From assembly GCF_003334785.1 (NCBI RefSeq), contig NZ_QOWV01000030.1: DNA of 24,767 nt; one strand, written 5' to 3'. The notes under the pieces were generated by a model that saw nothing but the letters and a program-made list of their open reading frames with translations, did not search any database and was not told the DNA's origin. Positions within the stretch are counted from its first letter, which is position 1. Each line of letters begins with the position of its first letter. Of the stretch, positions 1,568 to 2,195 are shown piece by piece. Source of the DNA: Escherichia coli (GTDB taxonomy: Bacteria > Pseudomonadota > Gammaproteobacteria > Enterobacterales > Enterobacteriaceae). The translations under genes were made by a program, and so were the position numbers.

Positions 1568-1658
1568 AGTCACCTCGTGCGTTATAGCGTACAGGCACCG
1601 TAGCATTTGTCCGTTATAACGCACAAGTGATAAACTTCCGTTTTGCCGGAGGAGTCGC
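1568..1658. promoter_or_regulatory. Divergent intergenic control region between ydcO (-) and ydcN (+)
   Basis: A 91 bp spacer between divergently oriented start codons. Contains the imperfect inverted repeat cgtgcgttataGCGTACAGGCACCGTAGCATTTGTCCGTTATAACGCACaag; the flanking halves GTGCGTTATA and TTATAACGCAC are complementary. Confidence 0.4.
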
Positions 1659-2195
1659 ATGGAAAATCTCGCTCGCTTTTTATCCACCACACTTAAACAA
1701 CTACGCCAGCAGCGCGGCTGGAGTCTTTCGCGACTGGCAGAAGCGACGGGCGTTTCTAAAGCAATGTTAGGGCAGATTGAGCGTAATGAGTCCAGTCCGA
1801 CGGTCGCGACATTATGGAAAATTGCCACCGGGTTGAACGTACCATTTTCAACATTTATTTCTCCGCCGCAGTCCGCTACGCCTTCAGTTTATGATCCACA
1901 ACAGCAGGCGATGGTGATCACTTCGCTGTTTCCTTATGATCCACAACTCTGCTTTGAACACTTCTCGATTCAGATGGCATCTGGTGCAATAAGCGAATCG
2001 ACGCCCCATGAGAAGGGGGTAATCGAACATGTCGTCGTCATTGATGGACAACTTGATCTGTGCGTTGATGGGGAATGGCAGACCCTTAATTGTGGGGAAG
2101 GCGTTCGATTTGCTGCAGACGTCACGCATATCTATCGTAATGGTGGGGAGCAAACCGTACATTTTCATTCCCTCATCCATTACCCGCGCAGTTAA
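1659..2195 (+). CDS. ydcN: XRE-family HTH plus C-terminal cupin-domain transcriptional regulator YdcN, 178 aa
   Basis: N-terminal HTH signature (LKQLRQQRGWSLSRLAEATGVSKAMLGQIERNESSP) and a cupin-like C-terminal half. Divergent from the ydcO transporter gene. Confidence 0.88.
   Translation: MENLARFLSTTLKQLRQQRGWSLSRLAEATGVSKAMLGQIERNESSPTVATLWKIATGLNVPFSTFISPPQSATPSVYDPQQQAMVITSLFPYDPQLCFEHFSIQMASGAISESTPHEKGVIEHVVVIDGQLDLCVDGEWQTLNCGEGVRFAADVTHIYRNGGEQTVHFHSLIHYPRS

Follow-up and report, generated by a model that had tools for sequence, protein, structure and literature searches.

Two palindromic operators in the ydcO-sutR spacer suggest that SutR is mainly a local, self-regulated repressor paired with a BenE-family transporter

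Background

XRE-cupin transcription factors act as local repressors on palindromic sites; PuuR, for example, leaves DNA upon binding putrescine (PMC7901475). In Escherichia coli, ydcN was renamed SutR, for "regulator of sulfur utilization" (Yamamoto et al. 2015, PMID 25406449). Genomic SELEX with SutR yielded 17 sites and 13-15 target operons, and a table in a later review places the ydcO/ydcN spacer among the SELEX targets. In the same table, the curated SutR regulon comprises cysE, fliAZ-tcyJ and sutR, and ydcO is not in that list. RefSeq labels the MG1655 protein a "dual regulator". In vivo, ChIP-exo found 62 SutR sites. The highest of these 62 peaks (signal/noise 1344.75) is the one assigned to ydcN, at 1504105-1504137 of NC_000913.2; dppA comes second at 140.56, and all other peaks have a signal/noise of 31 or less.

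The locus considered here is that of SutR of E. coli K-12 (b1434) itself, and both the published binding site and the published start sites map onto it. A preliminary description of this DNA had treated ydcN as uncharacterised, although it already bears the name SutR, and had proposed to check the binding of its product to the spacer. Such binding has in effect been demonstrated and published twice, in vitro by genomic SELEX and in vivo by ChIP-exo. The SutR system and its binding to the spacer are already known, and the description as written adds little to them. What we add is of three kinds. Firstly, there is a layout of two operators and two promoters, backed by published start sites. Secondly, this layout is widely conserved, and the site is far stronger than any other SutR site. 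Thirdly, the search for the ligand is shifted from aromatic acids to amino acids.

Results

The window (the whole stretch of DNA that was analysed, 24,767 nucleotides) is chromosomal DNA of the E. coli K-12 type. A 2.1-kb query around the gene pair was matched over at least 80% of its length in 5409 of 5426 complete E. coli genomes, and the annotation of the matching genomes reads insQ, ydcO, sutR, rlhA. The neighbours follow each other in the order insQ, ydcO, sutR, rlhA, yncJ and hicAB. RefSeq names the divergent pair ydcO and sutR. The pair is b1433-b1434 of MG1655, with 100% identity across 151 bases that comprise the 91-bp spacer and both gene starts. Published positions were converted to the window by subtracting 1502537 from those of NC_000913.2 (where ydcN lies at 1504196-1504732, the gene coordinates of Kim et al. 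2012).

ydcO (392-1567, minus strand) encodes 391 amino acids plus stop, a membrane transporter of the BenE family (TC 2.A.46) with the N-terminus MRLFSIPPPT. Its residues 6-381 match positions 3-378 of the 378 in the Pfam model BenE (PF03594, E=8e-162), and it scores 703.8 bits against TIGR00843, where the cut-off is 203.4; YdcO is thus a full-length member of the family, above the curated threshold. sutR, or ydcN (1659-2195, plus strand), encodes 178 amino acids. HTH_3 is matched at residues 12-64 (nt 1692-1850, E=1.5e-16) and Cupin_2 at residues 105-171 (nt 1971-2171, E=3.9e-10), so that an N-terminal Cro/C1-type helix-turn-helix and a C-terminal cupin barrel share one polypeptide of about 180 amino acids, as in the XRE-cupin class. 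The spacer between the two genes occupies 1568-1658 and its 91 bp are the same as in MG1655. The preliminary description had read the locus as an HTH_XRE-cupin fusion transcribed divergently from a BenE-like gene across 91 bp, and all of this is borne out. Its idea of a local regulator-transporter architecture has gained support from published binding, published start sites and conservation in 75 of 80 species.

Some features of the surroundings deserve separate mention. The 3´ end of insQ, at 62-352, belongs to an IS200/IS605-type TnpB gene (RNA-guided endonuclease family) that adjoins ydcO in E. coli; in Salmonella, ydcL directly adjoins in its place. In some E. coli genomes IS4-like (ISVsa5) or IS3-family insertions split ydcO into two annotated BenE fragments, so that these strains can do without the transporter. 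The beginning of YdcO (MRLFSIPPPT; codons 1-9 at 1541-1567, minus strand) is such that, apart from any action of SutR, synthesis of the transporter may be limited at translation. On the other side of the pair, SMRT-Cappable-seq reports a read-through transcript sutR-rlhA (1640-4229) and an rlhA start site at NC_000913.3 1506756, window 2243, which lies 7 nt past a scanned promoter TTCGCA-16-TAAAAT at 2209-2236. Kim et al. (2012) list an additional ydcP start site within sutR, at 1997. A genomic SELEX study of the sigma-28 holoenzyme contains a peak inside ydcN (NC_000913.2 1504230, window position about 1693) and also lists ynfF/ynfG. The latter is common to the sigma-28 and SutR SELEX lists, and may indicate recurrent SELEX-prone regions.

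When Salmonella and Klebsiella spacers are aligned, two conserved boxes stand out from diverged surrounding sequence, and the operator consensus is a perfect 22-bp palindrome, CTTGTGCGTTATAACGCACAAG. In E. coli the two copies are O1 at 1574-1595 (CTCGTGCGTTATAGCGTACAGG) and O2 at 1606-1627 (TTTGTCCGTTATAACGCACAAG). With a weight matrix built from 74 non-E. coli loci, that is, from other genera only, O1 and O2 each reach 29.9 bits where 36 are possible, whereas no other place in the 24.7-kb window scores above 3.8. O1 overlaps the Shine-Dalgarno sequence of ydcO, GAGG. A repeat search describes the same stretch in two ways, as inverted arms of 20 nt (1574-1593 and 1608-1627, 85% complementary) and as a direct repeat of 17 nt whose two copies are 32 bp apart. 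The palindromic nature of each copy makes both readings true. The inverted repeat has 17 of 20 positions paired; in 2000 shuffles of the spacer that preserved dinucleotides, the maximum was 15. The cross-genus matrix and the shuffle test were used because a search of the window with the 10-mer core alone gave 5 matches against 2.4 expected, which is not significant. The "extended imperfect palindrome" of the preliminary description is thereby real, as the shuffles and the matrix agree, and it resolves into two 22-bp palindromic operators instead of one.

The published ChIP-exo peak of ydcN falls at 1568-1600 of the window, centred on O1. It is the single peak that the ChIP-exo table gives for the spacer, with none on O2. 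As expected of an XRE-cupin factor, SutR therefore has palindromic operators close to a neighbouring target gene, namely two 22-bp palindromes with a ChIP-exo peak on O1.

A generic promoter scan of the spacer found no sigma-70 consensus, so the promoters were defined from conservation and from published start sites. On the ydcO side, an extended -10 element occupies 1597-1605 of the minus strand (TGCTACGGT), with TG at 1605-1604 and the hexamer TACGGT at 1602-1597. The start site 7 nt downstream of this hexamer, at 1590, was predicted from the conserved element before published start-site data were seen, and it coincides with the one of Kim et al. (2012, supplementary table), NC_000913.2 1504127 on the minus strand, with a 5´ UTR of 23 nt. 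On the sutR side, an extended -10 at 1628-1636 of the plus strand (TGATAAACT) is conserved beside O2 in Enterobacterales. Two start sites have been published for sutR, 1640 (SMRT-Cappable-seq, NC_000913.3 1506153) and 1645 (Kim et al. 2012, NC_000913.2 1504182), 4 and 9 nt downstream of the proposed -10, respectively. We count against the model that the two are 5 nt apart and that one of them lies merely 4 nt past the proposed hexamer. The supplements of the Cappable-seq paper contain no entry for the ydcO-sutR region, and the start sites used here come from SMRT-Cappable-seq and from Kim et al. (2012).

The operators can now be placed relative to these start sites. O1 spans -5 to +17 of ydcO. 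O2 spans -16 to -37 of ydcO and, depending on the start site, -18 to -39 or -13 to -34 of sutR. The outer arms of O2 provide -35-like hexamers for both genes, TTGTCC (1607-1612) for sutR and TTGTGC (1626-1621, minus strand) for ydcO. If the 75 BenE-paired loci described below are anchored on O2, the transporter side shows TGnTAnnnT at 2-3 nt from the operator core in 64 of them, and TAnnnT in 70. On the regulator side the TG form is present in 21 and TAnnnT in 35 of the same 75 loci; conservation is found in Enterobacterales, where the sutR -10 beside O2 takes the form TGnTAnnCT or TATAAT/TATACT. The positions of O1 and O2 are typical of repression, and the layout suggests a self-regulated local repressor.

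To describe the distribution of the module, a profile of SutR relatives was run against a single genome of each species; this gave 80 loci, in which the regulator is 48-90% identical to SutR. They cover Enterobacteriaceae, Erwiniaceae, Yersiniaceae, Pectobacteriaceae, Halomonadaceae, Aeromonas, Shewanella, Legionella, Pseudomonas and a betaproteobacterium. In 75 of the 80 loci, the next gene upstream is a divergent BenE homologue with 47-95% identity to YdcO, and each of these 75 spacers contains exactly two operator sites: of the 16 core positions, the best site matches 13-16 and the second 11-16, whereas a third matches no more than 11. Three of the five exceptional loci have neither the transporter nor the operators. 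Other genes recur beside the pair only in certain clades (rlhA in 36 loci, an AraC-type regulator with an EamA-type gene in about 30), and the BenE transporter is the only consistent companion gene of sutR across the 80 species. The same combination of a BenE gene and two operators is found at VC1968 of Vibrio cholerae, on an Azoarcus plasmid and in a metagenomic relative at 40% identity; two more metagenomic relatives (41-42% identity) likewise have two sites beside a BenE gene. With its operator almost unchanged, the module therefore extends from Enterobacterales to Vibrio, Halomonas, Legionella and some Betaproteobacteria.

Depending on the clade, 27 to 45 bp separate the two operators. We considered helical phasing of O1 and O2, as needed for cooperative binding, as a conserved feature and rejected it on this ground, since with such a range same-face cooperative binding cannot be a conserved requirement. 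In one BenE-paired relative at 40% identity (L102, 2454-2491) the operator core is a variant, GTTCGTTATAACGAAC, and its two copies are only 16 bp apart.

Discussion

We propose the following mode of action. SutR dimers would bind both 22-bp palindromes, O1 and O2, between ydcO and sutR. Since the two divergent promoters share O2 in their -35/spacer regions, one dimer on it would be expected to keep RNA polymerase off both and to shut both genes. O1, lying across the ydcO start site, would act as a second block, for the transporter gene only. As long as the signal is absent, SutR would hold expression of ydcO and sutR low. Upon binding of a small molecule, probably amino-acid-like and not aromatic, at the metal site of the cupin, SutR would be released and the YdcO transporter switched on, in whichever direction it presumably carries its cargo. 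That SutR represses, and that a cupin ligand would relieve the repression, we infer from the operators covering -35, spacer and +1, and by analogy with PuuR and PauR. The accessible literature, which does not include the primary SutR paper, documents no effect of SutR on ydcO expression. The RNA-seq tables of the ChIP-exo paper were considered as evidence on regulation as well. They do contain rows for b1433 and b1434, but b1434 is not depleted; the tables consequently do not come from a sutR deletion and are uninformative in this respect. All in all, we assign a probability of roughly three in four to the reading that SutR is mainly a local dimeric XRE-cupin repressor, acting on O1 and O2 and released by a ligand from ydcO and from its own gene.

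The published role of SutR invites a wider interpretation, in which it is mainly a global regulator of sulfur utilisation and the spacer only an autoregulatory site among many equivalent targets. The genomic SELEX figures of 17 sites and 13-15 operons can be read in this way, as can the presence of cysE and fliAZ-tcyJ in the regulon. Further, the 62 ChIP-exo sites include ggt, gss, dsbC, moeB, thiE, yihQ and dppA. We consider this interpretation rather unlikely, for the targets are far from equivalent. The signal/noise of the spacer is about 10 times that of the next peak and more than 40 times that of all others. Six secondary ChIP-exo sites were taken from MG1655 and scored with the operator matrix, and at each of them the best match falls exactly inside the reported peak, which at the same time validates the conversion of coordinates. 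These matches are degenerate copies of the motif, with 16.1 bits upstream of dppA, 10.3 at fliA and 9.7 at fucO, and the sites at yehB, caiF and ttdB score about 0 bits. Compared with the 29.9 bits of O1 and O2, full-strength sites occur in the ydcO-sutR spacer only. The motif score tracks the ChIP signal loosely, except at fliA, whose signal/noise is just 2.9 in spite of its 10.3 bits. The SELEX and ChIP-exo lists have only ydcO/ydcN, fliA/fliZ and ynfF/ynfG in common, and in the scan of 80 species no companion of sutR other than the BenE transporter is consistent. All this fits best with a SutR that regulates locally and has weak secondary sites besides, which is compatible with its published effects on sulfur-related genes. 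The global and the local reading are compatible as well; the difference is one of emphasis.

The question of ligand and substrate is where we depart most from the preliminary description, which had tentatively suggested an aromatic acid and had named benzoate and its derivatives as inducers to screen. That YdcO moves an aromatic carboxylate sensed by SutR is suggested by the name of the family, of which YdcO is an unambiguous member and which was named for benzoate transport. This name is the only ground of the suggestion, and the surroundings of the pair speak against it. An association with ben or cat genes does not appear among the recurring neighbours, and aromatic-catabolism genes stand next to the ydcO-sutR pair in none of the 80 loci. 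The benE gene that does lie within a catA/catBC cluster encodes a protein only 37% identical to YdcO and has neither a SutR-type regulator nor the operators, and other BenE clades are paired with MocR-type PLP regulators. The structure of the V. cholerae orthologue (PDB 1Y9Q) holds D-methionine and Zn in the cupin domain. Finally, three lineages have kept the operators in front of tRNA-editing genes in place of a transporter. An aromatic-acid system is, in view of all this, quite improbable. The literature searched on the function of the BenE family provided no transport data for YdcO.

We hypothesize that an amino-acid-like SutR signal is more likely than an aromatic acid. Residues His117, Glu123 and His157 of SutR do not vary among 38 sequences, the most distant of which is 32% identical, and judging from this pattern they probably bind a metal; they constitute the His/Glu/His set of metal-binding cupins, and 1Y9Q is listed as containing Zn. 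The non-BenE partners point in the same direction. Legionella shakespearei (L076, 1505-2426), a Coxiellaceae genome (L077, 2250-2900) and a metagenomic relative at 35% identity (L105, 137-1201) have kept two operators and have a divergent YbaK-like deacylase or AlaX-like tRNA-editing gene as partner, accompanied by an unassigned 140-aa protein in L. shakespearei and by DUF2000 in the metagenomic relative. A more distant relative, at 33% identity, is paired with a LysE-family exporter and an aminotransferase. It is the D-methionine and Zn of 1Y9Q, the invariant His/Glu/His and these tRNA-editing and LysE/aminotransferase partners that favour an amino-acid-like signal, although the D-methionine may be an artefact of crystallisation or labelling.

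A more specific version would make the module a Zn-cupin sensor of an amino acid similar to methionine or cysteine, maybe a D- or other non-cognate one, which the YdcO clade transports. We put it forward tentatively, as one possibility, for three reasons: the V. cholerae orthologue, with the same BenE partner and the same operators, was crystallised with D-methionine and Zn; the operators precede genes for trans-editing of aminoacyl-tRNA (YbaK-like or AlaX-like) in three separate lineages; and the weak targets published for SutR lean to genes of cysteine, glutathione and dipeptides. If this version is true, then it gives the first substrate class for the YdcO branch of the BenE family, and the transporter and the tRNA-editing enzymes represent alternative responses to one toxic amino acid.

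That SutR activates ydcO while it represses itself, with O2 perhaps serving to recruit RNA polymerase, is very improbable, for although RefSeq calls it a dual regulator and both promoters are weak by consensus, a simple scan of the spacer finding none, O1 over -5 to +17 of ydcO and O2 over its -35/spacer region are repression-type positions, and the XRE-cupin relatives studied so far are repressors.

Taken together, the main role of SutR seems to be that of a local gatekeeper for a single transporter, under its own control, and the question has been made concrete: which molecule releases SutR, and what is the cargo of YdcO? We suggest sulfur-containing and D-amino acids as candidates, and not benzoates.

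Relation to described systems

In the accessible literature SutR figures as a regulator of sulfur utilisation with many targets, whereas in our analysis its dominant site is the ydcO-sutR spacer. The XRE-cupin repressors PuuR of E. coli and ErfA, PsdR and PauR of Pseudomonas aeruginosa have the same combination of an XRE helix-turn-helix and a cupin (Trouillon et al. 2021, PMC7901475). They resemble SutR in that palindromic sites are bound by dimers, neighbouring genes are controlled and the cupin is regarded as the sensor (PMC7901475). PuuR and SutR are similar only in the helix-turn-helix (41 bits, where the cut-off is 211), and SutR has a BenE transporter, not a catabolic operon, as its partner.

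The structural relatives are closer. VC1968 of V. cholerae (PDB 1Y9Q) matches SutR over its full length (E=8e-37) and, although from another genus, has a divergent BenE partner as in E. coli and two operators, here 33 bp apart; it is a true SutR orthologue within the module of BenE gene and two operators. According to its description, the structure is a dimer that contains Zn and holds D-methionine in the pocket of the cupin. PDB 6B8W, the cupin domain of an XRE-family regulator, is about 70% identical to SutR over the cupin domain (E=1e-37).

On the side of the transporter, the BenE benzoate:H+ symporters of ben/cat clusters belong to the same Pfam and TIGRFAM family as YdcO over the full length. 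BenE homologues at 37-41% identity were observed in three further loci (L098, 3947-5188; L099, 3956-5182; L100, 3941-5134), all of them lacking SutR operators. Two are divergent from MocR-type PLP-dependent regulators, one of these near YggS and pdxK, and the third is in the arrangement catBC-benE. The cat-cluster BenE, with its 37% identity to YdcO, stands in this arrangement beside a LysR regulator. The name of the BenE family covers several functional clades, and "benzoate transporter" should not be read from the family name alone.
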